A stretch of DNA of 49,844 bases from Candidatus Nomurabacteria bacterium (GTDB lineage: Bacteria > Patescibacteriota > Minisyncoccia > Phycocordibacterales > UBA9973), in NCBI GenBank assembly GCA_052034745.1, contig JBPOIF010000009.1:1-49844 (forward strand), in the 5' to 3' direction. The notes below the pieces were generated by a model. That model searched no databases and was not told where the DNA came from. It was given only the letters and a program-made list of their open reading frames with translations. This document shows, piece by piece, positions 4,354-25,124 of the stretch. Made by a program: the position numbers and the translations under genes. The stretch's first letter is position 1, and each line of letters begins with the position of its first letter.

Positions 4354-4369
4354 CCGTAAAATGTTTTTG

Positions 4370-4397
4370 AAAGACCTGCTGAGGCAGGTCTTTTTTA
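4370..4397 (+). terminator. Rho-independent terminator
   Basis: gacctgc-tgag-gcaggtc + tttttt. Confidence 0.8.
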
Positions 4398-4616
4398 GTT
4401 TTTGAAACTTTCGGGTTGCCTATTGAATGTGTGATCACGAGTTACTACGGGGACCGTCTTCGACTTATCTCCCTCGAGTCAAAGCACTGTCAGACACAGT
4501 TTTGTGTTGTGTCACGAGTTACTAAGTAAAATTCTTCGCGTTGCTCGAATTGTACTAAGTACTCGCGACCCCGGCTCGGCCTGTCTAAAGACATGACCTG
4601 CGCCTTCACAACGTAA
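4398..4616. other. non-coding, repeat-containing spacer (possible structured RNA or recombination scar)
   Basis: No credible ORF. An 18-bp direct repeat tgtg(a)tcacgagttacta occurs at 4429-4447 and 4508-4524. A 10-bp stem lies at 4525-4563. The spacer is bounded by terminators on both sides. Confidence 0.3.
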
Positions 4617-4867: not shown

Positions 4868-5383
4868 TTAAGAAAGACAAACAATCTTTTGATACGTTAC
4901 CGCATCGGGGATGGGACGTTCTCTTGATGCATAGCTGAACACAATAAAGTATTCAAAATCGAACTGCTCGCTACTGTGGTCAAAGTGGGAATGATGACCA
5001 TCTTTGTCGCAGATCTCTTGAATCATTGCGAGTAACGCATCAGGTCCGAAAATCCAAAGTTTCCCAGGTTGTTTTTGAAGAACATGAGAAGCGATTTCTG
5101 CGTACGTATGAGCGTACTCGATGAGCGCATCTTCTCCTTTTTTCGATGCACTGTGATACTTGTCCTGGTCTACAAAAAGGAAGTGAATCTTTTCTGACCC
5201 GATACACACATCTCCTTTTTCTCCGTACACCTTTATTCTTTGAGCAACAAAGGGGAGCGTAGTGATGACTGCATAGACTGAGGAGGGTCCTACTGAATCT
5301 GAATAGACTTCTAATACTTCCTGCCTTGGATTTACACTAAACAGGCAAATCCTTGATTTTTTAATCCTTTCTAAACGTGACAT
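4868..5383 (-). CDS. hypothetical protein (171 aa from MSRLERIKK...)
   Basis: ORF 4868..5437, with the start placed at the internal ATG 5383. Terminator immediately downstream. No secure motif. Confidence 0.5.
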   Translation of the reverse strand: MSRLERIKKSRICLFSVNPRQEVLEVYSDSVGPSSVYAVITTLPFVAQRIKVYGEKGDVCIGSEKIHFLFVDQDKYHSASKKGEDALIEYAHTYAEIASHVLQKQPGKLWIFGPDALLAMIQEICDKDGHHSHFDHSSEQFDFEYFIVFSYASRERPIPDAVTYQKIVCLS

Positions 5384-5612: not shown

Positions 5613-5749
5613 TACTTGGGAGGGCTGGAGCGTTGATTTTGTTTTCTCTACTAATTTGGCAGAGAAAGGCAAAATCCGCGAGGCGGGGTCGCGCAAAATT
5701 TCCGTCAGGAAATTTATGAGTGACCACAAAGGAGCAACTAGTCGCGCGT

Positions 5750-5761
5750 AAGTCCTGTATC
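5750..5761 (+). repeat. 12-bp duplicate of the tRNA-Val T-arm/acceptor 3' segment
   Basis: aagtcctgtatc at 5750-5761 equals 5559-5570 inside the tRNA. Confidence 0.6.
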
Positions 5762-5771
5762 TGGGCCTGTA

Positions 5772-9686: not shown

Positions 9687-9773
9687 CGGAAACGGAGAGA
9701 TTTGAACTCTCGATGAGGTTACCCCCATGCCGCGTTTCGAGTGCGGTGCCTTCAACCACTCAGCCACGTTTCC
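9687..9773 (-). tRNA. tRNA-Ser (anticodon CGA), long variable arm
   Basis: The reverse complement is GGAAACGTGGCTGAGTGGTTGAAGGCACCGCACTCGAAACGCGGCATGGGGGTAACCTCATCGAGAGTTCAAATCTCTCCGTTTCCG. The loop is CT-CGA-AA. Confidence 0.9.
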
Positions 9774-9877
9774 AATATTCTTTTCATTCATCTGGAACAC
9801 TCGCGGCTTCGTGCTTGCCACCTCGTTTGTCTATAGTATGACAACTCGGATAAAACGCAAAGCAGTTTGCCTTTTAT

Positions 9878-9902
9878 CCACTCAGCCACGTTTCCAATAT
9901 TC
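9878..9902 (-). repeat. 25-bp perfect duplicate of the tRNA-Ser 5' end plus 7 nt of upstream flank
   Basis: ccactcagccacgtttccaatattc at 9878-9902 equals 9756-9780. Confidence 0.85.
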
Positions 9903-9909
9903 CTTCTAT

Positions 9910-10857
9910 TTACTTTGTTGTTTTGATCCAGATGTAGATATCCTCAAGTGCCTTGATAGCATCACCTGTTGCGATATTGTTCTGATGATATCTGCCATCT
10001 GTACAATCACCCGCAGCCCAAAGTCCGAGTATATCGGTTCGCTGGTTTGTCGGGTCGACAACGATGGTACCTGTTTCTGTGCGCTTGGCAAGACCTTCCA
10101 CAAGTTCTGTGTTTGGGAGCTGTCCGATCTCGACAAAGATACCACTGACAGTGAGTTTGTGCTCTTCGTCAGAATCTTTGACTTTATAGGTGAGCCCGTC
10201 GACAAACTGCTCTCCGGTGACACCCGTAAGTTCTGCATGTGTGATGACGGCAATTTTTGGGTTGTTCTGCACCATGGTGACTGTGATCGGGTCGGCACGG
10301 AAATTGTCAGAGCGGTGAATCAGCGTCACTTCACTTGCGTATTGTGCGAGCTGGATAGCGGCTTCAAATGCAGCATTGCCTCCACCGATGACCGCAACAG
10401 GCATTCCTCCAAAGAGTGGCCCGTCACAGGTCGCACAGTACATGATGCCTTTATGGTCGAGCTGTGCGGCTCCAGGAGCCTCGAGCTTGCGATGTCTGCT
10501 CCCGGTGGCTATGAGGACCGCACGCGCGTTGATAGTGCTCCCATCGCTCGCCTGGAGGGCAAAAGCAGCACCTTCTTTGGTGATGGTGGTGATTTTGAGA
10601 CCCGTTGAGAGGGTGACGGTACCCTTTTCTCCTGCTTTTTCGGGCGTGTATTCTTCGACGTGTTTTTTGAGGGATTGCGCAAGCTCTGTTCCTCCAATAG
10701 CAGGAGTACCGATCCAGTTGTAGATAGTCTCAGAGACGGCAGATTGACCACCGATCTCTTCGGCGATCATGATTGTTTTTAGTTGTTTGCGTCCAGCATA
10801 GACAGCAGCGCCGCATGCCGCAGGGCCGCCTCCGATGATTGCGAGTTCGTATTGCAT
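9910..10857 (-). CDS. trxB: thioredoxin-disulfide reductase family flavoprotein
   Basis: IIGGGPAACGAAVYA FAD motif, redox CATC, and a second Rossmann motif GGGNAAFEAA..HRSDNFRA. Confidence 0.9.
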   Translation of the reverse strand: MQYELAIIGGGPAACGAAVYAGRKQLKTIMIAEEIGGQSAVSETIYNWIGTPAIGGTELAQSLKKHVEEYTPEKAGEKGTVTLSTGLKITTITKEGAAFALQASDGSTINARAVLIATGSRHRKLEAPGAAQLDHKGIMYCATCDGPLFGGMPVAVIGGGNAAFEAAIQLAQYASEVTLIHRSDNFRADPITVTMVQNNPKIAVITHAELTGVTGEQFVDGLTYKVKDSDEEHKLTVSGIFVEIGQLPNTELVEGLAKRTETGTIVVDPTNQRTDILGLWAAGDCTDGRYHQNNIATGDAIKALEDIYIWIKTTK

Positions 10858-10884
10858 AGCCGGTAGTATAACAGAACGAGTAAT

Positions 10885-14162: not shown

Positions 14163-16031
14163 CTACAATCGCTCAGGATTGCGCTCTATTTTAAAAGGGA
14201 ATCGGAGCGATTCAAAAAAGCTCATGAGGTCACGACCTTCTTCTTCGAGGTACTCATTGGGTACTTTGACAAGCCATGAAAGGAGCACCTTCATACTACT
14301 GATACTGATGCGTCGAGCAGGGAGCATCGTTTGATCAAGGTCGTGTATGTACTCTTGTATTTTCTCGAGCACTTCCCGGTGGTGCCCTTCAGGGACGGTG
14401 ACGCTTATCTTGAGAAGTGTCCCAAACGGTGGATAACCGAGGTCTTTTCGAAGCGTGAGTTCTTCAGTCATGATGAGCGATGTTTTTTGTGTTTCAAGCT
14501 GTGTGACGAAGGGAACGTCAGGATTTTTTGTGCAGATGATGACACCGTCGATTGCGATTTCGTTGCACTGCATCACCAGTCGCAGGAGTGATTCGGTGGT
14601 GTACAGGCTCGGAATCGAATAGAGACGATCAAAAAAAGGGATCACTGCATAATGGATGCGTTTGATATAAGGGAGTGCTTTTTGAGTACCGACGATGACG
14701 GCAAACTTTTTTGATTCGATCGTTTTCAATATGTCTTCGATAGTTTTGCTATCAGGAGAGATGTCGTCATCGATTGCGACGACCGAGTCTTCTCCGACGA
14801 TATGAGCGACCGCGTCTTTGAGGCTCTCTGTTCCGATTGCGACAGGGACGATGTTCCATCCACCGCAATAGCTACAGGTATGATCAGGCGGGAGTGTTGT
14901 ACTACAGTGCAGGCAGAGAAAGAGTCGCTCTCTTGTTCCTCCTGACGTTTTGAAACGCAGTGCCATAGGGAGAGAGCACTCGGGACATTCGACAACGGTT
15001 CCACAATCTGCACATCGAGACAGCGGAGCGATACCTTTTCTGTTGGTGTAGAGAAAAAGTCGGCGTTTCTTTTTTTCTGCATGGCGAATGAGTTCGATCA
15101 CTTCAGTGGGGAGAACCGTGCGATAGTGTTCGACGGGAACGATATGAAGTTTGTCCGGGATAAATGATCGAGGGAGTCGATCCGCACCACAGTGAGCGAG
15201 TGTTTCAAATCGAGGGAGTGTGTCTCCGTAGATAAGGGTCGCCCCGATACGTGTTGCGAGCGCTGCAAAAAATACTCTCGTGTCGCTTTCGTAACGATCA
15301 GAGGTGTGATAGAGATCGCTACTCTCGTCTTCGAGGACGACAGAGCCGATAGTAGTGACCGGAACAACGGAGAACCCGGGTGTCGCAAATACAAGAAAAG
15401 GGACATTGTCATTTTTGATGGCTGCAAATTGTGAACGAAGCATCTTCTTGGTGACCTTGCTATGAAAAATCATCACATGTCTGCCGATGCCTTTTTCGAG
15501 TTGACTCTTCCACCATTCGAGAGACCTTATAGTGGGTGCAATAAAAAGGACGCTTTCTTTAGAAGCAAAAGAGCTTCGAATCATACGTTTGTACTCATCG
15601 ACTCTTGAAGCTCTCGTTCCTACGAGACTCTTTTTTTCTCCTCCGAGAGGGCGAAGGGTATTTTCAGAAAGGAGTGATGCGACCTTTTCACCTGCGATGT
15701 ATTCAAAGAGGATCTGAGGAAGTACCGCAGAAGCGACTGCTCCCAAAGGAGAAAGAGTGGCTGACGCTGTTTCTTTGAGAGCAGCGATGATTGCTTCAAA
15801 GTAGCCGACATGTCCAATGATTGATTTTATTTTTTTGAGTGAAAACGCTGCTTGTTTTACAAATGCTTTTGCTTCGATGAGGGGTATTGTTTCGGTGATG
15901 ATGCCGTAGAGTGTTTGTCGCCCAAAAGGAATAGTCACCAATGTTCCTGGTTCAAGAGGTTCAGGCGCATAGTAGGTGAGTGTATCGAAAGGGATACCGC
16001 GAGCAATGGGGATAATCGTTGCGATATGCAT
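14163..16031 (-). CDS. priA: primosomal protein N' (PriA) with degenerate ATPase motifs
   Basis: N-terminal 3'-DNA-binding region, Cys-rich CADCG..CPECS..CLHCS..CSYCG zinc module, and C-terminal GYPPF. The Walker A position reads LVGTRASRVDEY. The DEEH position reads LEDESS. Confidence 0.85.
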   Translation of the reverse strand: MHIATIIPIARGIPFDTLTYYAPEPLEPGTLVTIPFGRQTLYGIITETIPLIEAKAFVKQAAFSLKKIKSIIGHVGYFEAIIAALKETASATLSPLGAVASAVLPQILFEYIAGEKVASLLSENTLRPLGGEKKSLVGTRASRVDEYKRMIRSSFASKESVLFIAPTIRSLEWWKSQLEKGIGRHVMIFHSKVTKKMLRSQFAAIKNDNVPFLVFATPGFSVVPVTTIGSVVLEDESSDLYHTSDRYESDTRVFFAALATRIGATLIYGDTLPRFETLAHCGADRLPRSFIPDKLHIVPVEHYRTVLPTEVIELIRHAEKKKRRLFLYTNRKGIAPLSRCADCGTVVECPECSLPMALRFKTSGGTRERLFLCLHCSTTLPPDHTCSYCGGWNIVPVAIGTESLKDAVAHIVGEDSVVAIDDDISPDSKTIEDILKTIESKKFAVIVGTQKALPYIKRIHYAVIPFFDRLYSIPSLYTTESLLRLVMQCNEIAIDGVIICTKNPDVPFVTQLETQKTSLIMTEELTLRKDLGYPPFGTLLKISVTVPEGHHREVLEKIQEYIHDLDQTMLPARRISISSMKVLLSWLVKVPNEYLEEEGRDLMSFFESLRFPFKIERNPERL

Positions 16032-16086
16032 ATCTAGGTTATACCGCGCTCTCGTTATTTCGACAAAAGTTGTTCGTGGGTATACT

Positions 16087-17118
16087 ATGATAAGCGCAAT
16101 GTTTCGTCTCCTGCAGGGTAAAAAAATAGGTATCGACCTCGGTACGACATATACAAATGTCTATCTTTCGGGGCGAGGAATCGTCGTGTCGGAGCCCACA
16201 GTGGTTGCAATCAATACGACGACAAAAGAGATTGTCGCCATTGGTGCAGAAGCAAAAGAGATGATAGGAAAGACTCCTGAAACTATCTCTGTGATTCGTC
16301 CGATGCAAGATGGAGCGATCGCGAACTACCAGTTGACCTATGCGATGCTCAAATACTTCATCACGCGAGCACTTGGGCGTGGGGCACTCTTTAAGCCAGA
16401 TGTGCTTGTATCGGTTCCCTCAGGGATCACCGGAACGGAGCGTCGCGCGGTGATCGAGGCGACTATCAAAGCAGGTGCAAAAAATGCATTTATCGTCAAA
16501 GAGCCGATCCTTGCAGCAATCGGTGCAGGAGTACCTATCAATGAACCACGAGGGCACATGATCATCGATGCAGGGGGTGGAACGACTGATGTTGCGGTGA
16601 TTTCTCTCGGAGGTGTGGTGGCCAGTACTTCGGTCAAATGTGCAGGGAACAAAATAGACCAGGCGCTTCGTGAATATCTCCGCCGTACGTACGGTATATT
16701 GATCGGAGATCAAACAGCAGAAGAGTTGAAAAAAAATCTCGCTAGCGCGCTCGCAATCAACCCGGATGTGACCGGACAAGTAAAAGGACGCGATCAAAAT
16801 ACTGGACTTCCAAAGACGCTCGACCTGACGACGAACGAACTCGTCAAAGCGATCGATTATGAACTCAAACAGATCGTGAGAGCAATCAAGACCGTACTCG
16901 AAGAGACTCCTCCCGAGCTCGCAAGTGACATCATCGACAACGGTATCGTCATGACCGGAGGAACCGCACTTCTCGCACACTTGCCAGAGCTTGTTGAAAA
17001 AGAAAGTGGAGTCAAGGTCCGTCGTGCTGACAACGCACTCCTTGCAGTTGCAAATGGAACAGGGATACTCCTCGAACACCTCGGTGATTACAAACGCTCA
17101 ATCCTCGCAAAGCGATAA
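16087..17118 (+). CDS. mreB: rod-shape determining actin homolog MreB
   Basis: [14 protein letters not shown] and IIDAGGGTTDVAVISLGG. An alternative start lies at 16099 (MFRLL). Confidence 0.9.
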   Translation: MISAMFRLLQGKKIGIDLGTTYTNVYLSGRGIVVSEPTVVAINTTTKEIVAIGAEAKEMIGKTPETISVIRPMQDGAIANYQLTYAMLKYFITRALGRGALFKPDVLVSVPSGITGTERRAVIEATIKAGAKNAFIVKEPILAAIGAGVPINEPRGHMIIDAGGGTTDVAVISLGGVVASTSVKCAGNKIDQALREYLRRTYGILIGDQTAEELKKNLASALAINPDVTGQVKGRDQNTGLPKTLDLTTNELVKAIDYELKQIVRAIKTVLEETPPELASDIIDNGIVMTGGTALLAHLPELVEKESGVKVRRADNALLAVANGTGILLEHLGDYKRSILAKR

Positions 17119-17161: not shown

Positions 17162-17458
17162 TTAATGGGGTCTGTCTTTATTTTTCTCTCTATCCGCTCT
17201 GACCATGTCACGGATTTCTGTGTTTGACAGAATTGCGTGCATTTCCAAATAAGCAAACACCCAGCCTATCCAGCGTCCAGCTTTTAAAGCGAGATCGAGT
17301 GATGTTGTATCCATTTTTTCTATTTCATCACACATCCACAAAAGATGAGACAGTGGTGGAAGCATTCCTTTGACCAGAGTCGCTTCGGCTGGTTCTGTAT
17401 AAGGAGAGGATTTTTTTATAACAGAGCGGATGTTCCCTATAGATATTTGGTAGTACAT
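17162..17458 (-). CDS. hypothetical protein (98 aa)
   Basis: ORF with a divergent promoter (TTGACA on the minus strand at 17499-17504) and a shared terminator. No secure motif. Confidence 0.5.
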   Translation of the reverse strand: MYYQISIGNIRSVIKKSSPYTEPAEATLVKGMLPPLSHLLWMCDEIEKMDTTSLDLALKAGRWIGWVFAYLEMHAILSNTEIRDMVRADREKNKDRPH

Positions 17459-17497
17459 AAAAATTTATTTCTCTCACCTTACAATCCAATATTGACT

Positions 17498-17525
17498 TTG
17501 TCAAACGGGGGAGGTAGAGTAGGGA
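17498..17525 (+). promoter_or_regulatory. promoter cassette P4 (TTGTCA-N16-TAGGGA), related to P1/P2
   Basis: ttgtcaaacgggggaggtagagtagggaaaaataaat shares the GGGGAGGT spacer core with P1/P2. An ATG follows at 17535. Confidence 0.5.
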
Positions 17526-17657
17526 AAAATAAATGTATGAATTTAAAATTCTCAGATCTTTTGCAGCCGATCATCGATCGCTTTAATGTACAAGCTCAAA
17601 TTTTTATTTGCTCCGAACCCGGTGAGGATATTTGAAAGAGTTTGTTATACTAGGTCC

Positions 17658-18281
17658 ATGGAACATATCTGGGTAAAGTCGACCAATCAAGAAGAATCAG
17701 AAAAACTTGCAAAAATAGCGCAGAGCGCATCTGAAAATATAGAAAATAAGTCGCCGACGAAAGAGATGCTTGATGAAGAAATTCAGAGGTATATAGATAT
17801 ACGATTTCCAGTAACAAATGAGGATAATCTTCAAGAAGATGCTGCACAGAAGTTTGTAATCGATAGTAATTATTTAGACGAACTTCACAAAAATGAAGCG
17901 TTAGGAGAGCAAGTAAATCAAGAAATTGTTGATGGTCTATGGAGGATGTATGAGAAGATGTTGGAACAAGGTGCGTATTTAGATCTGCAGAGAGAATTGA
18001 GTCCTAAGATAAATAAGCTCTTAGATAGTCTAAAAGTTTTAGAGCTCCAAAATGAGATTAAAGAACAATTTCCAATGGCGAAATCAGCTATAACGAATAA
18101 AGAAGCATTTTTTATCGCGCAAAATGAAATAAGTCATATAAAAAGTGAGTTGGATAGTATACGAAATGAAGAAGTATCTCCACAAAGTGTCGGACAGTTA
18201 CTTGAGCAGTACAAAGCATTGTCGGAAAAATATCAGACAGTCAGAGCTTTAATTGAACCTGAAAATTCTGCATTAAATTAG
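17658..18281 (+). CDS. hypothetical coiled-coil-like protein (207 aa)
   Basis: E/K/Q/L-rich ORF. An alternative start lies at 17586. The stop TAG abuts repeat copy A. Confidence 0.5.
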   Translation: MEHIWVKSTNQEESEKLAKIAQSASENIENKSPTKEMLDEEIQRYIDIRFPVTNEDNLQEDAAQKFVIDSNYLDELHKNEALGEQVNQEIVDGLWRMYEKMLEQGAYLDLQRELSPKINKLLDSLKVLELQNEIKEQFPMAKSAITNKEAFFIAQNEISHIKSELDSIRNEEVSPQSVGQLLEQYKALSEKYQTVRALIEPENSALN

Positions 18282-18340
18282 TGCCCCGACTGTGTACCGC
18301 CGTAGTCTTGGCGGAGGGATAGCTTGGGACGATGTTCGAA
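18281..18340 (+). repeat. island repeat copy A
   Basis: gtgccccgactgtgtaccgccgtagtcttggcggagggatagcttgggacgatgttcgaa. It starts on the G of the upstream TAG stop. Confidence 0.85.
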
Positions 18341-18391
18341 AGGAGATATCTGTTATATAATAAGGTTATTACCACTTAATATTCTAAATAT

Positions 18392-18544
18392 ATGGAAAAT
18401 TTCCCCAAAACAGAAGAAAATTCATCTGAAAAAAACCTTAAGGTTAACTCTGAAGGAAAGAAGTATGAATACGAAAAGGATGGTGTTTATTACGGCGGGG
18501 ATTATCTAGCCGAACCACCACAGGAGTTAAACATTAACGCTTAG
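18392..18544 (+). CDS. small hypothetical protein (50 aa, MENFPKTEENSSEK...)
   Basis: ATG ORF not in the supplied track (under 60 aa), followed directly by a strong terminator at 18551-18581. TATAAT at 18355-18360. Confidence 0.35.
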   Translation: MENFPKTEENSSEKNLKVNSEGKKYEYEKDGVYYGGDYLAEPPQELNINA

Positions 18545-18550
18545 TCTTTA

Positions 18551-18581
18551 AAATCACCCATTACGGGTGATTTTATTTTTT
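18551..18581 (+). terminator. Rho-independent terminator
   Basis: aaatcaccc-attac-gggtgattt + tattttt. Confidence 0.8.
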
Positions 18582-18598
18582 AGGTTATTATTAAGTTA

Positions 18599-19129
18599 AT
18601 GAAAGAATACGAAAAAGACGCATTGTTAAGATTAATCGAAGGTGGTCGGTATATTTCTGTTTTACCTGACTCTCCAGAGGCGAGATATTTTGTTCAAACT
18701 AATAATCTAGATGTAAGAATATTACCACCAAAAGAAATTGGTCAGATAGTGGTCGGAACTCATAAAAAGATAAGAGACGTTATTTCTATTGAAGATATAA
18801 ATGAAGTTGGTTTCCCTGAGTATATTAATGAGTTAAAAAATCTTTACGCTAAGATTTCTGACGAATTAGTAGTAGACGCCTTCATTCTTTTGCAGAATCT
18901 ATTTATAGAAAATAATTATCAGTTTCCCGAAATTGATATAATCTATGGATTACTGTTTCGATTTAAAGTATGTGACATACGTTACTATGTTCAAACCAGG
19001 GATCAAGGAATAGAAAAGCATTCACTAGAGGCAATTATTGATGAGCATATAGGTGACCGAGTAAGAAACATTGAAGAGCAACAAGTATACTGCTACGAAT
19101 GTTCTAAAAAGATTTTAGGAATAAAATAA
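18599..19129 (+). CDS. hypothetical protein (176 aa)
   Basis: AT-rich ORF. Repeat copy B begins 11 nt after its stop. Confidence 0.55.
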   Translation: MKEYEKDALLRLIEGGRYISVLPDSPEARYFVQTNNLDVRILPPKEIGQIVVGTHKKIRDVISIEDINEVGFPEYINELKNLYAKISDELVVDAFILLQNLFIENNYQFPEIDIIYGLLFRFKVCDIRYYVQTRDQGIEKHSLEAIIDEHIGDRVRNIEEQQVYCYECSKKILGIK

Positions 19130-19140
19130 ACTTCAAAAAA

Positions 19141-19202
19141 GCGCTCCGACTGTGTACCGTCGTAGCTGAAAGCGGGAGGAGTAATTTGGGAGGATGTTCG
19201 AA
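19141..19202 (+). repeat. island repeat copy B
   Basis: gcgctccgactgtgtaccgtcgtagctgaaagcgggaggagtaatttgggaggatgttcgaa. 60/62 identical to copy C. Confidence 0.9.
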
Positions 19203-19212
19203 TAGAAATAGG

Positions 19213-19259
19213 CTAATAAAAAAGCCCACCAATGAAGATGAGCTTCAATATGGCAGGCT
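19213..19259 (-). terminator. minus-strand terminator (stem uses G-U pairs only on the minus-strand RNA)
   Basis: On the minus strand: agccugcca-loop-uggugggcu + uuuuuuauu. Confidence 0.45.
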
Positions 19260-19263
19260 TATG

Positions 19264-19731
19264 TTAGTTTGCTTCTCTTACAATACCCTTGATGAGTTCT
19301 ACATAGGTATACTGTCCGTTTTCTATGCTTTCATAAAATGGCGATTTAATAGAAACCAAATCCCAATATGTCTCTTGTGGAGGGTCATATTTATGAGAAT
19401 ACTTTAACTGAACAGTATCTCCAACCGTAACTCCATTCTCATATGCAAACTTAATTGAACGGCTATACAGTTCATTATTAGTGTTAAACCTGTTTGCATA
19501 CGCTTCTGGGTCTTTATGGTGTAAATCAATATCGTTTTGTTCAGCTCTTTTATAAGCTGGCATCACGACATCAATTACCATTTGAGTAGGAAGTTTTTCT
19601 GTGTTAGTTACTTCCTTTATTTGTTGTGGTGGATCTAATGAAACATTCCACTTACAAATAAAGAACACTATTGTTCCAATAACTACTACAGATAGTATTA
19701 TTTTTATCCAGGTCATCGTGCTATTTTTCAT
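19264..19731 (-). CDS. membrane-anchored hypothetical protein (155 aa)
   Basis: N-terminal hydrophobic helix WIKIILSVVVIGTIVFFICKW, followed by a soluble domain. Confidence 0.6.
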   Translation of the reverse strand: MKNSTMTWIKIILSVVVIGTIVFFICKWNVSLDPPQQIKEVTNTEKLPTQMVIDVVMPAYKRAEQNDIDLHHKDPEAYANRFNTNNELYSRSIKFAYENGVTVGDTVQLKYSHKYDPPQETYWDLVSIKSPFYESIENGQYTYVELIKGIVREAN

Positions 19732-19866
19732 TGCTGATTATTTAACTGTTTTAAATTATTGATTCCTCTCTAATCCCACAGAGGAGCAGGGAAGAACCAA
19801 CAAAATCAACACTAAATAATCAAGTAATTCAAAGAACTATTATGGGTATACTATAGCATAAAATGA

Positions 19867-19895
19867 TTGACAAGTCAAGTACAGTGTGCTATCAT
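19867..19895 (+). promoter_or_regulatory. promoter TTGACA-N17-TATCAT
   Basis: -35 at 19867-19872 and -10 at 19890-19895. About 100-nt leader before the ATG at 19996. Confidence 0.5.
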
Positions 19896-19995
19896 AATAC
19901 CAGAAATTAACACGGCTCTCTGTACAGAATTAACCATTTTGAGTAGCTCAGTACAGGGAAACGGTAACTATAAGTAACACTAAAAACTTATAGTT

Positions 19996-20244
19996 ATGAC
20001 ACAGAAAACAATTGAGAAAGAAAACACAGTTTTTTATCGTCTCCTCAAACACACGAGGTTTGTAGGAAATCCTGAGTGTAAACCCGAGGTTCTATGGGAA
20101 GGAAATCATATTCCTGACCTTATAAGAAAACATCCTCGGAATTATCGTATAGAATATTTTTCCTGCGATGATTTTGACACATGGGTCTCAATGGAAAGAA
20201 TGGAGAATGACCAGTGGCAAAAAACTGATGACATTCGTCCATAG
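19996..20244 (+). CDS. hypothetical protein (82 aa)
   Basis: ORF with an upstream promoter and terminator 20255-20281. Confidence 0.5.
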   Translation: MTQKTIEKENTVFYRLLKHTRFVGNPECKPEVLWEGNHIPDLIRKHPRNYRIEYFSCDDFDTWVSMERMENDQWQKTDDIRP

Positions 20245-20254
20245 TGAAATTGGT

Positions 20255-20281
20255 AGCCCCTTTAACAAAGGGGCTTTTTTC
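20255..20281 (+). terminator. Rho-independent terminator
   Basis: agcccctt-taaca-aaggggct + ttttt. Confidence 0.8.
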
Positions 20282-20316
20282 TTTTCCAAGACCTTCACAA
20301 CATGCACAACGTTCAC

Positions 20317-20344
20317 GTGCTCTGAATTTGGGACGATGTTCGAA
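20317..20344 (+). repeat. island repeat copy D (internally deleted: both ends retained)
   Basis: gtgctc|tgaatttgggacgatgttcgaa. It keeps the 5' hexamer and the 3' 22 nt of the family. Confidence 0.7.
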
Positions 20345-20372
20345 TGAGCTTGTCAGTAGTACACTGAAGGGT

Positions 20373-20591
20373 ATGAGGAAAAAATATCTTTCAATTTTTC
20401 TATATATTTTATCTGGAATCTCACTAGTTATATTTTTGTTAGGTGTCCCATTAATTCTATGGTGTTCTATTGGCATACATAAAATCGGATCAGGGTCTTG
20501 TGAAATGAATACTGCCCTGATTAAAATCTGGTTGTGTTTAGCTATCTCAGTTATCTTATTTGTTGTTGCACGTGCTAGTCATCATAAATAG
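20373..20591 (+). CDS. small membrane protein, two predicted TM helices (72 aa)
   Basis: MRKKYLSIFLYILSGISLVIFLLGVPLILW...IWLCLAISVILFVVA. GAAGG lies 3 nt upstream. The stop TAG abuts repeat copy C. Confidence 0.45.
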   Translation: MRKKYLSIFLYILSGISLVIFLLGVPLILWCSIGIHKIGSGSCEMNTALIKIWLCLAISVILFVVARASHHK

Positions 20592-20652
20592 TGCTCCGAC
20601 TGTGTACCGTCGTAGTTGAAAGCGGGAGGAGTAATTTGGGAGGATGTTCGAA
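20591..20652 (+). repeat. island repeat copy C
   Basis: gtgctccgactgtgtaccgtcgtagttgaaagcgggaggagtaatttgggaggatgttcgaa. Confidence 0.9.
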
Positions 20653-20660
20653 GCTCTCTC

Positions 20661-20689
20661 AAATAAAAACCACCCTGAAGACAGGGTGG
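20661..20689 (-). terminator. minus-strand Rho-independent terminator
   Basis: On the minus strand: ccaccctg-tctt-cagggtgg + tttttattt. Confidence 0.75.
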
Positions 20690-20793
20690 GGTGCTCGGAT
20701 GATAATCTCATTTAGGTATTCCAAGGTAGATCATACCCTCTTTGATTTTTGCCAAAGAGCTAATGGAATATAGAACTTACGGCCCGAACTTCT
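20662..20793 (-). ncRNA. candidate small RNA (~130 nt) with its own promoter and terminator
   Basis: Promoter at 20800-20828 and terminator at 20661-20689. Internal hairpins ctctttg-N8-caaagag and ggtat-N13-atacc. The longest ATG ORF is 8 codons. Confidence 0.45.
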
Positions 20794-20799
20794 AAGTAG

Positions 20800-20828
20800 A
20801 TATTATCACATATATTAAGATTTGTCAA
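20800..20828 (-). promoter_or_regulatory. minus-strand promoter TTGACA-N17-TAATAT
   Basis: The reverse complement reads ttgaca aatcttaatatatgtga taatat. Confidence 0.55.
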
Positions 20829-20830
20829 AC

Positions 20831-20890
20831 CTGCTCCGAACGTGGGACAGCCTGCCCCTTCGAAGCTTTAGCGTAGAGGGGATGTTCGAA
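20831..20890 (+). repeat. island repeat copy E (diverged centre, conserved ends)
   Basis: ctgctccgaacgtgggacagcctgccccttcgaagctttagcgtagaggggatgttcgaa. Confidence 0.7.
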
Positions 20891-20945
20891 TGAGTCTCGT
20901 AAGGAAAGAGGGGAAGATAGGCTTGTAAATAAAGGGTTATTATGT

Positions 20946-20974
20946 TTGACAAAGTGTGTATTCTATGCTATTAT
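20946..20974 (+). promoter_or_regulatory. promoter TTGACA-N17-TATTAT
   Basis: -35 at 20946-20951 and -10 at 20969-20974. Confidence 0.55.
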
Positions 20975-21013
20975 AAACAGGTAAATAAGTTCCTTAACTC
21001 TAAAACTGAATAT

Positions 21014-21397
21014 ATGTCGGATAAAAGCGCTTTACTTAAAAGGTTGCACGAAGTATCGAAACTCGGAAAAATAAAAGCAAAAGAAGAGGCGGTTAAACGT
21101 AGCATTAAACAGGATCAGGAAAAAGAAGCGGAACAATTAAAAAAATGGCAAAATGAAGCCAAAGAAATTGTTGACAGAGCTTTAACTGAAGAAGAGCTGT
21201 TTGTGGCTGCAGAAAATGGAACTACTCATTACTGTATAAAGTCCATGAATAGTTACATTCCAGCAGAACGACTAATGGGTCTTGAGAAATGTATTTTTGA
21301 AGAAATTGCTAAGCACGGATTTACCCCGTTAGTTATTACCGAGACCGAAGAAGATTTTGACTTTTACTACATTGGAATTCAGTGGAGAGATATTTAA
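21014..21397 (+). CDS. hypothetical protein (127 aa from MSDKSALL)
   Basis: ORF 20942..21397. The first 24 codons overlap its own promoter, so the start is moved to 21014. Terminator at 21422-21449. Confidence 0.5.
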   Translation: MSDKSALLKRLHEVSKLGKIKAKEEAVKRSIKQDQEKEAEQLKKWQNEAKEIVDRALTEEELFVAAENGTTHYCIKSMNSYIPAERLMGLEKCIFEEIAKHGFTPLVITETEEDFDFYYIGIQWRDI

Positions 21398-21421
21398 TTA
21401 TCAACCTGTAAATCATTTTGG

Positions 21422-21449
21422 CCACCCTATAAATGGGTGGCTTTTTTAT
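21422..21449 (+). terminator. Rho-independent terminator
   Basis: gccaccc-tataaat-gggtggc + tttttt. Confidence 0.8.
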
Positions 21450-21494
21450 TGGATGAATATTGAACTCTTTAGCATGTATACTAGAGACATAGTT

Positions 21495-22100
21495 ATGATC
21501 GATTTCGCACAATACGCGCCACAAAAGATGTTTCTCTTGCAAGGAGACCAAGAGGTTTTTGACCGCACACTTGAGCACTTTGTGAAGCAGTATCCACTCA
21601 CACAGGCGCTCTCGGTGCCACGCTTTACTATAGAACACGCACGTTCTGTTGCGGAGTTTGCACTTGAAGGGACGGGTGAGGCGAGAGTCTTTGTCGTCTT
21701 TTTCTCGGTATTTTCTCCTGACGCAGCCCAGGTACTCCTCAAGTCACTCGAAGAGCCAGATCGGCAGACCACTATCGTCTTTATCACTGCATATCCATAC
21801 CTTGTGCCAAAGACAGTGCGTTCGAGAGTCACACTTGTAAGCGGGCAACACATAGCAGTGTCTTCAAAGAGCACTCGAGCAAAAGTGATTGCTGATATCC
21901 AAAAAGAAGCTGCTGAAAAAGAAGACGATCCTGCGACACGGAGAGCACGAGCGGTGCTCCTCCTTGATGTTCTCGAGTCTGTTGTTCGTACCGATTCGAG
22001 TGATGCCAAAGTGGTGTATGAAGCAAAAGATATGCTTTTCAAGGCAAATATGCCGACAAAATTTGTGCTTGATTATGTTGCAACGGTAGTTCGCTCATAA
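21495..22100 (+). CDS. holB: short DNA polymerase III delta'-like clamp-loader subunit
   Basis: AAQVLLKSLEEPDRQTTIVFITAYPYLVPKTVRSRV matches the LLKxLEEP...TIxSR box. The start is placed after the upstream terminator. Confidence 0.6.
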   Translation: MIDFAQYAPQKMFLLQGDQEVFDRTLEHFVKQYPLTQALSVPRFTIEHARSVAEFALEGTGEARVFVVFFSVFSPDAAQVLLKSLEEPDRQTTIVFITAYPYLVPKTVRSRVTLVSGQHIAVSSKSTRAKVIADIQKEAAEKEDDPATRRARAVLLLDVLESVVRTDSSDAKVVYEAKDMLFKANMPTKFVLDYVATVVRS

Positions 22101-22126
22101 AACACCCGCTCATGGCGGGTGTTTTA
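22099..22126. terminator. bidirectional terminator
   Basis: aaaacacccgc-tcatg-gcgggtgtttt. Confidence 0.75.
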
Positions 22127-22252
22127 TTATTTCTTGCGCTTGCTTGTTTTTTTACTTGCGAGCATTACTCTCTTTGCAGCAAGACGTTTCTTTGTTTTGT
22201 GAGATCGGGTAGATTTCTTTTTTGGACCAAGTGATGTTGCTCTTTTTGCCAT
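22127..22252 (-). CDS. very basic 41-aa protein (MAKRATSLGPKKKSTRSHKTKKRLAAKRVMLASKKTSKRKK)
   Basis: ATG ORF not in the track (under 60 aa). It ends at the bidirectional terminator. Composition is like small ribosomal or nucleic-acid-binding proteins, but no family was recognised. Confidence 0.4.
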   Translation of the reverse strand: MAKRATSLGPKKKSTRSHKTKKRLAAKRVMLASKKTSKRKK

Positions 22253-22343
22253 ACGTAATTGTCTTTAATCAAATAAGATATATAGTATGCCCTATTTTTC
22301 GATTTAATTCTATCATCGGGCGCCCATGGTATACTGAGAGCCT

Positions 22344-22880
22344 ATGTACGATTTGACGATACTGAAACAAGAACTGAAACAAGCGAGTGAGTGGCTTTTG
22401 AAAGAATACTCACAGATACACACAGGACGAGCAGCGCCAGCGCTTCTCGACGGAGTGCAGGTTGAGGTGTATGGCATGATCCAGCCACTCAAGAACTGCG
22501 CAAGTATCTCTATCGAAGATCCAAAGACACTCCGCGTTCTTCCTTGGGACAAGAGTATCATCAAAGATGCTGAACGCGCACTCTATGCTTCAAACTTGGG
22601 ATTTTCTGTTGCGGTTGATGACGCAGGTATTCGCGTCATTATCCCTGCGCTTACTACGGAGACACGGACCAGTCTCGTAAAGATCGCCAAGGAAAAACTA
22701 GAAGATGCACGTATCACGGTGCGCAAAGCGCGTGAAGCAGGACTCTCGATGCTCAAAGACACATCTCTTCCCGAAGATGCACTTGTTCGCGCAAAAGAAG
22801 AAGTGCAAAAGCATGTCGACGAAGCAAATGATGCGCTCGAAGGGCATTTCAAGCAAAAAGAATCTGAGATCATAAGTTAA
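22344..22880 (+). CDS. frr: ribosome recycling factor
   Basis: EYSQIHTGRAAPALLDGVQVEVYG...IPALTTETRTSLVKIAKE. 178 aa. Confidence 0.92.
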   Translation: MYDLTILKQELKQASEWLLKEYSQIHTGRAAPALLDGVQVEVYGMIQPLKNCASISIEDPKTLRVLPWDKSIIKDAERALYASNLGFSVAVDDAGIRVIIPALTTETRTSLVKIAKEKLEDARITVRKAREAGLSMLKDTSLPEDALVRAKEEVQKHVDEANDALEGHFKQKESEIIS

Positions 22881-22888
22881 ATCATTCG

Positions 22889-23944
22889 ATGACGATCATT
22901 ATCTTTCTTTTGGTTCTCCTGGTGTGTGTGCTTGTTCATGAATGGGGACATTTTTTTGCTGCGAGAAAGAGCGGGATGCTGGTGCAAGAGTTTGGATTTG
23001 GTATTCCTCCGAGACTGTGGGGCAAGAAAAAAGGGGAGACGCTCTACTCTATCAACGCACTTCCTATTGGTGGTTTTGTAAAAATCGCAGGAGAAAATGG
23101 GCTTGATGACGATACCCCAACAGAGAGACAGTTCGAATCAAAACCTTGGTATCTCAAAGCATTTGTCCTTGTTGCAGGCGTGGTGATGAACTTTGTGCTT
23201 GCACTTGTCCTCTTTACCCTTGCGTACAGTCTCGGTATGCCGACTGCAACAAAAGGGGGCACGCCGACTGTTGTTGCTGTCACTCCGCAATCACCTGCAC
23301 AAAAGGCAGGTGTCGTGATTGGAGACACGATACAAAAGGTCACGGTTGATGGAATCCATGCAACAACAATCGCGACTGAGGACTTGCGCGCACTCATTGC
23401 ATCATCGGCTAAAGAGGTGCGCATCGTCTATACGCATGCGGGAGAGCAAAAAGAGGTGACCGTGGTGCCACAAGGTGAGCAGGGCGCCCGTTTTATCGGA
23501 GTTGCTGTTGAGCCGATCGGGATCGTAAAGGCAAATCTTTCTGAGTCGATACATGCAGCGTGGTTGCAGACCTGGAGTCTCGTTGCGGCGATCTGGAACA
23601 CCCTCGCTCATCTTGTCGGAGGAATCTTTGTTGCAGGGGATCAGGGAGGCGTCAGTGACCTTGTAGGGCCTGTAGGACTTGCAAATCAGGTTCGTGGTGC
23701 TGCAACGATTGGTTTTGCCTATCTCCTTGCCTTTACCGCAGTGATCTCCGTCAATCTCGCCGTGCTCAATATCATGCCATTTCCTGCCCTCGATGGGGGA
23801 CGACTTGTCGTGGTTCTCCTTGAAGCAGTGACGCGAAAGAAATTTTCTCGAACAGTCATCGGCTACATTCATGCGGGAGGATTTTTGCTCCTCATTCTTC
23901 TGATGCTCGTGCTTACTGTTGGCGACATACGAAAGTTATTGTAA
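22889..23944 (+). CDS. rseP: site-2 protease, M50 family (RseP-like) with PDZ
   Basis: HEWGHFFAARKSGM HExxH motif, ALPIGGFVKIAGE, and C-terminal NLAVLNIMPFPALDGG. Confidence 0.88.
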   Translation: MTIIIFLLVLLVCVLVHEWGHFFAARKSGMLVQEFGFGIPPRLWGKKKGETLYSINALPIGGFVKIAGENGLDDDTPTERQFESKPWYLKAFVLVAGVVMNFVLALVLFTLAYSLGMPTATKGGTPTVVAVTPQSPAQKAGVVIGDTIQKVTVDGIHATTIATEDLRALIASSAKEVRIVYTHAGEQKEVTVVPQGEQGARFIGVAVEPIGIVKANLSESIHAAWLQTWSLVAAIWNTLAHLVGGIFVAGDQGGVSDLVGPVGLANQVRGAATIGFAYLLAFTAVISVNLAVLNIMPFPALDGGRLVVVLLEAVTRKKFSRTVIGYIHAGGFLLLILLMLVLTVGDIRKLL

Positions 23945-24032
23945 AAATGCTTTTTGGGGGAGAAAAAAAGCGTATCGATCCCGCCAGAGAACTGTTATAG
24001 ACAAAGGCTTTCGTAGCCATCCCCCAATATGT

Positions 24033-24060
24033 TTGACTTTTCCTATATCCATGATAGAGT
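24033..24060 (+). promoter_or_regulatory. promoter TTGACT-N16-TAGAGT
   Basis: -35 at 24033-24038 and -10 at 24055-24060. Confidence 0.5.
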
Positions 24061-24095
24061 AAGTAAATACAAATTTAGAAAACACCACAAACACC

Positions 24096-25124
24096 ATGCC
24101 AATTATTAGTTTCAAACCAAAACAGGTCACGAAGCGGCTCCTCTCAACACTCCAGGATCGATCGCACGATATCATCGTCAATCGATATGGACTTGGTGAC
24201 AATGCAGATACCAAGACACTCGAAGCCATTGGTAAAAAGTACAGCATCACTCGCGAACGTGTTCGACAAATTGAAAATGCAGCACTTTCTGCGATTAGAA
24301 AAAGTGATTTGTTCAAAACAGAACACAAGGTGTTTTCTGAAATCAAGTCAGTCGTTGAAGCAATGGGAGCATTGGTTCACGAAGATGATTTTCTCTCTTA
24401 TATCTCAAAAGACAAATCAGTACAAAACCATGTACGTTTCTATCTCGTCCTCGGTGATCACTTTGAAAAACTCAAAGAAGATGACCATTTTCATGCACGA
24501 TGGACCGTTGATAGTGAGCTTTCTGAGGTAGTACATACTGCACTGCAGTCAATCTACAAGTCGCTCTCTGATAAGGAGCTCCTCTCTGAGGATGATCTCG
24601 TGAAGCGATTTTTGACTGAACTCAAAGACGTCGCTTCTCAATACAAGAACGAAGAGGTTGCACGACGTTGGCTCGGTATTTCAAAGCGTATCGGCAAGAA
24701 CCCTCTCGGTGAATGGGGTCCTGCAGAATCTCAAAATATAAAAACTCGCGGTATCAAAGACTACGCGTTTCTTATGATGCGAAAACATGGCTCCCCAATG
24801 CACTTCCGTGAAGTTGCAAAGGCGATCCAAGATACCTTTGGCAAAAAGACTCACATCGCAACCACACACAACGAACTCATCAAGGACCCTCGTTTCGTTC
24901 TTGTTGGACGCGGATACTACGCACTCGCAGAATGGGGCTACAAGCCAGGAGTTGTTCGTGATGTTATCGCCGAAATCTTGAAAAAAGACGGACCACTTAC
25001 AAAAGACGAAGTTGTCGATCGCGTACTCAAGGAGCGATTTCTCAAGAAAAATACTATTTTGGTTAATCTTCAAAATCCAAAGTACTTCAAGAAACTTTCT
25101 GACGGTACATATACGATTGCATAA
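24096..25124 (+). CDS. sigma-70 region-4-like HTH plus C-terminal HARE-HTH domain protein
   Basis: LEAIGKKYSITRERVRQIENAALSAIRK (region 4.2-like). The C-terminal MHFREVAKAIQ..RFVLVGRGYYALAEW is HARE-HTH-like. Confidence 0.6.
   Translation: MPIISFKPKQVTKRLLSTLQDRSHDIIVNRYGLGDNADTKTLEAIGKKYSITRERVRQIENAALSAIRKSDLFKTEHKVFSEIKSVVEAMGALVHEDDFLSYISKDKSVQNHVRFYLVLGDHFEKLKEDDHFHARWTVDSELSEVVHTALQSIYKSLSDKELLSEDDLVKRFLTELKDVASQYKNEEVARRWLGISKRIGKNPLGEWGPAESQNIKTRGIKDYAFLMMRKHGSPMHFREVAKAIQDTFGKKTHIATTHNELIKDPRFVLVGRGYYALAEWGYKPGVVRDVIAEILKKDGPLTKDEVVDRVLKERFLKKNTILVNLQNPKYFKKLSDGTYTIA

Follow-up and report, generated by a model that had tools for sequence, protein, structure and literature searches.

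A repeated DNA site between mreB and holB

We examined a 49,844-nucleotide stretch of a Candidatus Nomurabacteria contig (JBPOIF010000009.1, hereafter the window), in which a short DNA site recurs between the small genes of an island lying between mreB and holB. The window is bacterial chromosome and not phage, given that tRNA-Glu, tRNA-Val, and tRNA-Ser genes are present, and it encodes ftsZ, ftsA, priA, mreB, frr, rseP, yceG, alaS, rpsD, rpoA, dnaK, and dnaJ, among others. Homologs of its holB-like gene (P0001-P0120) are labelled Candidatus Paceibacterota, Nomurabacteria, or Patescibacteria by their sources. The sites fall within a 36%-GC island (17.1-21.45 kb) whose flanks are at 45-47% GC, and the array is ordered as site F, g2, site A, g3 and g4, site B, g5 and g6, site D, g7, site C, a candidate small RNA, site E, and g8, where g2 to g8 denote small island genes. 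Together with copies found in related genomes, these sites make up a family with a common anatomy, which is strictly co-oriented, placed one per gap, and confined in several lineages to variable low-GC islands that share cargo.

A sequence-only reading of the same DNA had described five copies of a repeat (A to E) with shared 5' and 3' blocks, all on the plus strand. We re-located these five exactly, and 10-mer and mismatch searches recovered both blocks at the same five places. The 10-mer GATGTTCGAA occurs exactly five times in the 49,844 bases, always on the plus strand and between 18331 and 20890, and the 5' block accompanies it each time with 0-2 mismatches. All five are thus real, but the count was incomplete, as a weight-matrix scan found a sixth, degenerate copy (F, 17610-17636), located 21 nucleotides upstream of the g2 start codon and confirmed by a later model (R1). 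With the two-block weight matrix, the window copies score 26-32 bits, and every other match in the scanned sequence reaches at most 21 bits. The copies, along with a module that adjoins one of them, are listed below.

Site F, 17610-17636, plus strand: short and degenerate, first of the array; GCTCCGAACCCGGTGAGGATATTTGAA; weight matrix 25.8 bits; model R1 22.2 bits, E = 5e-6.
Site A, 18281-18340, plus strand: long form, with left arm GCCCCGAC, a 32-nucleotide insert, and then CTTGGGACGATGTTCGAA; begins on the G of the g2 TAG stop.
Site B, 19141-19202, plus strand: long form, 31.2 bits, between the convergent g4 and g5.
Accessory module, 20282-20316, plus strand: 35 nucleotides immediately 5' of site D, homologous to DNA 5' of the sites at 7135 and 9249 in the related contig L014 (TTTTCTCCAGACATYCACGAC..AACGTTCAC).
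Site D, 20317-20344, plus strand: canonical short form GTGCTCTGAATTTGGGACGATGTTCGAA, collinear with the L014 consensus; model R1 18.6 bits, E = 7e-5.
Site C, 20591-20652, plus strand: long form, 60/62 identical to B; its first base overlaps the g7 stop codon.
Site E, 20831-20890, plus strand: long form with an unrelated 32-nucleotide insert, 31.8 bits; model R1 matches both halves separately.

Several particulars of the sequence-only reading held as well. The 60/62 identity of B and C was reproduced, and A and C do start on the G of a TAG stop, the open reading frames (ORFs) there ending at 18281 and 20591. Likewise, the copies share one orientation despite an opposite-strand gene (g5, on the minus strand), and the spacing of one or two small genes, or one small-RNA candidate, agrees with the cassettes from F-A to C-E. 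Another contig, L001, breaks off inside site B.

Anatomy of the site

The canonical unit is 26-28 bp rather than ~60 bp. An alignment of 28 short sites (A1) gave the consensus nTTTGCTCCGAACCTTAGAGGATGTTCGGAAnAn. In this consensus, two 11-bp arms, GCTCCGAACCT on the left and ATGTTCGGAAT on the right, enclose an asymmetric centre of 6 bp (TAGAGG), and the whole can be summarised as TTTTGCTCCGAACCT-TAGAGG-ATGTTCGGAAT. When reverse-complemented, the right arm agrees with the left one at 8 of 11 positions, and the best-conserved columns of the alignment are the centre and the GATGTT motif. The centre reads TAGAGG or TGGAGG, with GGGASG in the window copies.

Among the six window copies, D has the canonical form and F comes close to it. 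In the other four (A, B, C, and E), the short site is interrupted immediately behind its left arm by an extra 32-34 nucleotides. A and B/C have related inserts, to which that of E bears no relation. Earlier, the centres of the copies had been called variable, which is right for E, but the first 15 nucleotides of the A centre (TGTGTACCGYCGTAG) are homologous to the centre of B and C. Site D had also been regarded as an internal deletion. Instead, D is collinear with the 26-28-bp form that dominates related genomes, and since this is so, we read the supposed deletion derivative as the ancestral unit and the 60-bp copies as derived from it.

The terminal inverted repeat noted earlier is real, but no compensatory changes accompany it. 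Across the 28 sites we found no covariation between the arms, with the central G-C pair broken in 11 of the 28 and the observed score reached by 484 of 500 shuffles. Moreover, when the 60-nucleotide window copies were folded as single-stranded DNA, neither strand did better than shuffled sequences (z -0.6 to +1.4), and folding of all copies as single-stranded DNA and as RNA, on both strands, gave no consistent or significant structure. In a search of Rfam 15 with E up to 10, nothing overlaps any copy, and only three tRNAs in the window pass the gathering threshold. Because the arms vary without compensation, the comparison indicates a site read as duplex DNA by a protein, rather than a hairpin under selection.

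Some other roles for the repeat were considered and rejected. There is no tRNA-like match that would make it a tRNA T-arm or att-site remnant, and a coding role fails on the differences between A and B/C, which are non-synonymous in the sole open frame. As a -35 promoter element, the repeat would be spaced from the -10 by a distance that varies over 8-15 nucleotides, and canonical TTGACA boxes occur elsewhere. A promoter element of any sort is disfavoured by those copies that adjoin the 3' ends of convergent genes and by the widely varying spacing to the downstream -10/-35. Lastly, a degenerate left half-site upstream of holB (~21458-21480) was suggested by eye, but is not claimed here as model R1 did not detect it.

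Arrays in related genomes

L014 came to light through a search for g8 homologs, and covers 20 kb of a 68-kb contig. Its 14-kb island (37% GC) has ~25 small genes, 15 on the plus and 10 on the minus strand, and a site in almost every intergenic gap. These sites comprise 18 strong short copies, three weak ones, and two split by inserts (at least 23), and all are on the plus strand. The array is flanked on one side by a widely conserved gene for a 320-residue protein and on the other by hpf, fmt, and def; in L017 and L018 there are only four genes, and not a single site, between these flanks. Taken together, the arrays have 36-37% GC against 41-47% in their flanks, and their cargo is orphan or accessory, including NUDIX, CYTH, low-molecular-weight phosphatase, oxidoreductase, and methyltransferase genes. 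As a separate observation, the 320-residue protein (P0123, L014 521-1483) shows 60-80% identity between contigs that carry the labels Paceibacterota, Gracilibacteria, Uhrbacteria, and Yonathbacteria, which is unusually high for such distant classes of the candidate phyla radiation (CPR).

In two of the L014 sites (4235-4445 and 8329-8426), GGATG is followed by an insert that splits the site, 175 nucleotides long in the first and 65 in the second; the two inserts are related and have their ends in common (YTCCCG... and ...AGCGRAGCRRAGTCGTG). They may represent a very small element with the crossover region of the site as its target, which would recall insertion sequences directed at attC or pdif.

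The mreB-holB junction itself varies among relatives. In four of them (L009, L010, L012, and L013) mreB is directly followed by holB. Elsewhere, the junction is occupied by an aminoglycoside/fructosamine-kinase-like gene (L008), by g1 and two other small genes (L011), or by a 181-residue gene and a g8 homolog (L015). In L007, whose holB product is 72% identical in amino acid sequence, a methyltransferase gene lies just upstream of holB between two short plus-strand sites, GGCTCCGAACTTTAGATGATGTTCGAA and TGCTCAAAACCCTGGATGATGTTCGGAA. These comparisons mark the junction as an insertion hotspot in the clade, and they place the site family in another species at the same junction around different cargo. 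L012 carries two sites in an island downstream of holB, and a half-site besides.

We also observed 44-bp direct repeats (5727-5770 and 6790-6833) on either side of the kinase-like gene of L008, with the holB -10 region as part of the repeated sequence. Right before the second of these repeats is a partial left half-site (CTCTGAACTTTAGATGAT), and a decayed site is located at 5321-5348 (R1, E = 0.007).

When the terminal blocks were searched for in related genomes, as the sequence-only reading had proposed, the site was found to recur in L007, L012, and L014 and to be confined to variable islands. Overall, there are ~35 copies, in one direction within each array and nearly exactly one per gap. 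With model R1, no site was found in ~45 kb of housekeeping DNA from the window or in ~90 kb from other loci. The long-form two-block pattern gave only chance matches in GTDB genomes and JGI metagenomes, within coding sequences of an Elusimicrobiota metagenome-assembled genome and of two soil contigs, and the short-form pattern had no match in viral contigs.

Cassettes as transcription units

The genes of the island and its two anchors are as follows.

mreB, 16006..17118, plus strand: left anchor of the hotspot; Pfam MreB_Mbl, E = 1e-123.
g1 (98 residues), 17162..17458, minus strand: island gene outside the array; 75% amino acid identity to L011 448-744 (same place, without sites); matches phrog_7775, E = 1e-7.
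g2 (207 residues), cassette F-A, 17658..18281, plus strand: gene call in L002/L003; extended -10 TGTTATACT 6 nucleotides upstream of the ATG; no Pfam, PADLOC, or significant PHROG match.
g3 (50 residues), cassette A-B, 18392-18544, plus strand: gene call; terminator at 18549-18575.
g4 (176 residues), cassette A-B, 18599-19129, plus strand: gene call; only 17 relatives among 1.84 billion representative proteins.
g5 (155 residues), cassette B-D, 19264-19731, minus strand: promoter at -19878, terminator at -19246; no family match.
g6 (82 residues), cassette B-D, 19996-20244, plus strand: promoter at +19867, divergent from that of g5, and terminator at +20255; no family match.
g7 (72 residues, hydrophobic), cassette D-C, 20373..20591, plus strand: ORF reading.
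Small-RNA candidate, cassette C-E, 20660..20793, minus strand: no convincing ORF; promoter TTGACA-17-TAATAT at 20828-20800, terminator at 20689-20670; RNA fold z = -2.6.
g8 (127 residues, 21014-21397) with its terminator, 21014..21450, plus strand: last unit before holB.
holB (DNA polymerase III delta'), 21495..22100, plus strand: right anchor; Pfam DNA_pol3_delta2; homology with L007, L011, L008, and L012 resumes at 21494-21510.

None of the eight island proteins has a Pfam or PADLOC match and, apart from g1, none has a significant PHROG match; moreover, near and distant searches of phage and plasmid collections gave no match to the island. Both strands of the island carry intrinsic terminators as well as strong consensus promoters, arranged such that each cassette is its own transcription unit, with strong promoters after the sites and terminators before them. 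In the C-E cassette, the minus-strand promoter adjoins site E and a strong terminator adjoins site C, for a transcript of ~135 nucleotides. A promoter module (AAGAGGGGAAKATAGSCTTRTAAATAAAGG...TTGACAA...TATTAT) is shared by several cassettes and begins ~14 nucleotides after the site, both in the window (20905-20978) and in L014 (8439-8511 and 9908-9961). With each cassette a self-contained transcription unit, its gene can sit on either strand.

Two further observations concern expression. In L014, the cassette at 10487-10875 looks gene-less and has its promoter and terminator laid out as in C-E, but contains an uncalled ORF of 78 residues. Also, a number of genes start 3-9 nucleotides 3' of an extended -10 (TGnTATACT) and have no Shine-Dalgarno sequence (window 17640-17660, 20355-20375, and 21475-21497; L007 995-1017; L009 4233-4252), which suggests that leaderless or near-leaderless mRNAs are common in the lineage.

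Evidence for exchange and a proposed mechanism

On balance, we consider these repeats to be probably an array of self-transcribed cassettes bounded by double-stranded, dif-like sites and served by a recombinase encoded elsewhere, with the logic of an integron but belonging neither to integrons nor to the attC clusters that have no integron-integrase (CALINs). Of the alternatives that the sequence-only reading had offered, recombination sites for an unknown recombinase are the best fit to the data. Its notion of integron-like cassette logic also stands as regards the co-oriented sites, the one- or two-gene units, and the L007 and L014 arrays, though not as regards a filing under attC sites or CALINs. 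Recombination itself, the class of the enzyme, and the positions of cleavage are what we infer.

Cargo is shared between lineages to a degree that their housekeeping genes are not. The g8 unit of the window is 96% identical in amino acid and 90% in nucleotide sequence to a cassette of the L014 array, and over its 3' 202 nucleotides it matches L012 at 94.5% identity, against only 64% for the holB protein of L012. Between lineages, mreB and holB are 70-75% identical in nucleotide sequence, far below the g8 unit. A second cargo gene is common to the L014 array and the mreB hotspot of L011. L012 has the left arm TTTTGCTCCGAACCT fused to the interior of g8 exactly at the boundary of arm and centre, the kind of junction that recombination with a secondary site would leave. 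The two split sites of L014, both interrupted at one and the same point (after GGATG), fit this reading as well. That all sites are in direct orientation is also the outcome to be expected if circular cassettes were inserted again and again, and such an arrangement permits excision, not inversion.

As a mechanism, we propose that the functional unit would be a ~28-bp double-stranded site of the dif/lox type, in which the two 11-bp arms bind a recombinase and the asymmetric 6-bp centre sets the polarity of the site. The enzyme would be encoded elsewhere in the genome, with an Xer-like tyrosine recombinase as the most plausible and most economical guess, and its predicted cleavage positions are GCTCCGAACCT^TAGAGG^ATGTTCGGAA. 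Recombination between two directly repeated sites would release a cassette as a circle, and the same reaction run backwards would place a cassette into a site already there. Over many such events, cassettes would accumulate head to tail, their sites all in one direction. A promoter and terminator of its own would let each cassette carry a gene on either strand. The four long sites of the window (A, B, C, and E) may be impaired or have become fixed.

A number of results weigh against this proposal. No recombinase was detected by Pfam in 40 proteins of the 49.8-kb window (not all ORFs under ~130 residues were scanned), nor in the precomputed Pfam annotations of L014 and L016, which include 30 kb spanning the L014 array. 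In particular, the absence of an integrase from the window, noted earlier from the sequence, was borne out by the scan of the 40 proteins, and neither these nor L014 and L016 have an intI or Phage_integrase domain. No case was seen in which a cassette had come or gone with its ends exactly at two sites; L002, the only second strain, has an identical array. Homology of the g8 unit ends 28 nucleotides before the site in L014 and starts 14-30 nucleotides after the site, not at it. The 6-bp centre varies within one array, and classical tyrosine recombination wants identical centres. The arms are 33 nucleotides out of register in four of the six window sites, which makes these unlikely substrates. 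Finally, the sampling covers only five lineages, with the genome and metagenome scans having used the long-form pattern.

At the strain level, L002 differs from the window by one single-nucleotide polymorphism (SNP) over the 4.7 kb of the island and holB (17353-22100), yet by 63 SNPs over the next 2.2 kb (22101-24530, frr and rseP). The mosaic changes sharply in the holB-frr spacer and suggests that homologous exchange took place recently within the population.

Alternative explanations

Two rival explanations keep real weight. In the first, which we judge unlikely but worth retaining, the sites would be operators or insulators, with a dimeric DNA-binding protein (a foreign-gene silencer or an island-specific repressor) bound to the inverted arms in each gap and no recombination taking place. 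Inverted arms without covariation do fit protein recognition of duplex DNA, many copies lie 5-15 nucleotides upstream of a promoter or extended -10, and no recombinase is nearby. Yet the orientation of the sites is fixed to the chromosome, not to the gene, and B, C, the first L007 site (L007a), and several L014 sites adjoin the 3' ends of convergent genes. The distance from the site to the -10/-35 ranges from 5 to more than 100 nucleotides, and the asymmetric centre is conserved as much as the arms, which is unusual for an operator spacer. Moreover, an operator leaves unexplained both the cargo differences marked by sites and the half-site fusion in L012.

In the second, to which we give slightly less credence, the sites would serve as linkers or boundary patches of homology, through which RecA-type recombination swaps modules after DNA uptake with no dedicated recombinase. 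For phage genomes, module swapping of this kind has been proposed at boundary sequences and at promoter-stem-loop cassettes. This would agree with the highly similar island DNA common to diverged lineages, the strain-level mosaic (one SNP in 4.7 kb against 63 in 2.2 kb), the promoter modules that are also common to several cassettes, and the lack of a nearby recombinase. At 26-34 bp, however, the patches are at or below the minimum length for efficient RecA recombination. Such patches also do not need inverted arms and an asymmetric centre, yet these are conserved. The breakpoints observed fall at specific positions within the site.

That the site is a selfish miniature element is improbable. 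As a short imperfect palindrome found only in intergenic DNA, with some copies that carry an extra insert with conserved ends, it could pass for a repetitive extragenic palindrome (REP), a REPIN (a paired REP hairpin), or a miniature inverted-repeat transposable element (MITE) that accumulates between genes by means of a transposase encoded elsewhere. Against this, the ~35 copies run in one direction within each array, almost one per gap, and are absent from ~135 kb of housekeeping sequence; no target-site or flanking duplications are visible, and 26-28 bp is below known MITE size. The island is also unmatched in phage and plasmid collections, and the scan of viral contigs for the short site was empty. 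The REP/MITE alternative of the sequence-only reading is therefore disfavoured by co-orientation, by the one site per gap, and by the restriction to variable islands.

We regard a genuine attC array (a CALIN), with atypical sites folded as single strands and IntI encoded elsewhere, as very improbable. The logic of the array fits (co-orientation, cassettes of 0.3-1.3 kb, and overlap with stop codons), the arms have AAC...GTT cores, and CALINs without a nearby intI are common (PMC4889954). But a site of 26-28 bp, with only 10 nucleotides between the palindromic cores, has no room for L boxes or a variable loop. Its R boxes match the consensus at 5 of 7 positions, its arms show no compensatory changes, its long copies fold as single-stranded DNA no better than shuffles, and its cassettes have their own promoters and lie on both strands. 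No integrase is nearby either, and the filing as attC sites is not supported.

Just as remote is a shared RNA module (a 3'-untranslated-region stabiliser, a processing site, or an anti-Shine-Dalgarno mimic), for although GGAGG boxes are present, a 7-bp stem is possible in RNA, and A and C directly follow stop codons, there is neither an Rfam match (E up to 10) nor covariation, the RNA folds of B and C are not better than shuffles, and the single DNA orientation, independent of gene strand, means that the sites would be transcribed in either sense or, after terminators, not at all.

Other features of the window

Three features of the window lie outside the array. At 24096-25124 (plus strand) is encoded a conserved 342-residue protein, which occupies the same position in all relatives (L007-L010 and L013) and joins an N-terminal sigma-70 region 4 to a HARE-HTH domain, a domain combination that is unusual for a transcription factor. 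A very basic ORF of 41 residues (22127-22252, minus strand) in the holB-frr spacer is kept in L007 and L011, and in L016 with 73% nucleotide identity. It is probably a real small gene with ribosomal-protein-like composition, to which the gene calls assign no family. Lastly, at 9747-9901 the 5' end of tRNA-Ser(CGA) with its flank (~34 nucleotides, CCACTCAGCCACGTTTCCAATATTC) is repeated 121 nucleotides away, and L001, from the same organism, is without the intervening 121 nucleotides. The two differ here by a strain-level indel, with a partial tRNA duplication at its borders.

Significance

CPR bacteria, most of them uncultured, have very small genomes that are considered poor in classical mobile elements, and the question of how accessory genes are gained and replaced in them is still open. 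With confidence a little short of even, we suggest that CPR chromosomes carry an undescribed gene-capture platform, comparable to integrons yet mechanistically distinct from them, in which single-gene, self-transcribed cassettes would be stacked at housekeeping junctions by way of a 28-bp, double-stranded, dif-like 11-6-11 site. The enzyme would be encoded elsewhere, being possibly the cell's own Xer, and the cassettes would be exchanged between divergent lineages. We found no description in the literature of such arrays in CPR bacteria or elsewhere. If true, this platform would offer a concrete, searchable mechanism for strain-level variability in CPR bacteria through orphan genes stocked at defined sites, as well as a sequence tag (TTTTGCTCCGAACCTTAGAGGATGTTCGGAAT and variants) for harvesting the CPR flexible gene pool from metagenomes. 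It would also be a second, independent cassette-array solution beside integrons, and its minimal duplex site could serve as a recombination tool. Should the site be an operator instead, it would amount to a regulon-like marking of foreign DNA in CPR bacteria, which would also be new.

Comparison with known systems

CALINs are defined as cassette arrays without a neighbouring integrase (PMC4889954). The arrays described here resemble integrons and CALINs in their head-to-tail, small (0.3-1.3 kb), mostly single-gene cassettes with orphan or accessory content. Each cassette has one co-oriented, imperfectly palindromic site, which may overlap a stop codon and has array-specific variants, and more than the two co-oriented sites that would suffice to separate cassettes are found, with six in the window and at least 23 in L014. 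In contrast, attC is a folded hairpin of 57-141 nucleotides with R and L boxes, central spacers that stay unpaired, extrahelical bases, and a variable loop, whereas the site here is of a 26-28-bp double-stranded type. The sequence-only reading had also remarked that the termini depart from the RYYYAAC/GTTRRRY consensus. Indeed, the consensus arms TCCGAAC and GTTCGGA each agree at 5 of 7 positions, keeping the AAC and GTT cores but failing at positions 1 and 4, and the R-box equivalents of the window copies are CCGAC or CCGAAC, and GTTCGAA. Moreover, integron cassettes are mostly promoterless and co-oriented, whereas here they occupy both strands (15 plus and 10 minus in L014; g5 and the small-RNA candidate on the minus strand in the window) and have their own promoters and terminators. 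Among the integron reports found in the literature, none is from the host phylum Patescibacteria.

The pdif sites on Acinetobacter plasmids are 28-bp sites with two recombinase arms and a 6-bp spacer, at which recombination between sites of the same spacer is favoured and XerC/XerD are encoded elsewhere (PMC13141974). Like pdif modules, the cassettes here are discrete gene modules between sites, and the 11-6-11 layout (28 bp, two 11-bp partly inverted arms, and a 6-bp centre) is the same, though the arm sequence is unrelated. Whereas pdif sites alternate in orientation (C and D modules), such that single modules cannot excise, those here are all direct. Furthermore, dif modules reside on plasmids, whereas the present arrays are chromosomal, reach at least 23 sites, and belong to CPR bacteria. 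The ATGTT core of the site is presumably shared with E. coli dif.

As with REPs and bacterial interspersed mosaic elements (BIMEs), the sites are short, imperfect intergenic palindromes that often occur just after stop codons. REPs, however, are dispersed genome-wide in both orientations and linked to REP-associated tyrosine transposases (RAYTs), whereas the sites here are confined to variable islands, one per gap, and co-oriented.

Integrative mobile elements exploiting Xer (IMEX), such as CTX, TLC, and VGJ in Vibrio and the gonococcal island, lie in tandem at chromosomal dif, in the replication terminus, and use the host Xer with no integrase of their own. What they have in common with the arrays here is a tandem order of elements, separated by dif-like 28-bp sites in direct repeat, none of the elements having an integrase. 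While IMEX are found at the terminus, the window has no sign change in GC skew, its cumulative skew rising monotonically, and the arrays occupy two unrelated housekeeping contexts (one between mreB and holB, the other between the gene for the 320-residue protein and hpf). And where the units of IMEX are phages or islands, those of the arrays described here are single genes.

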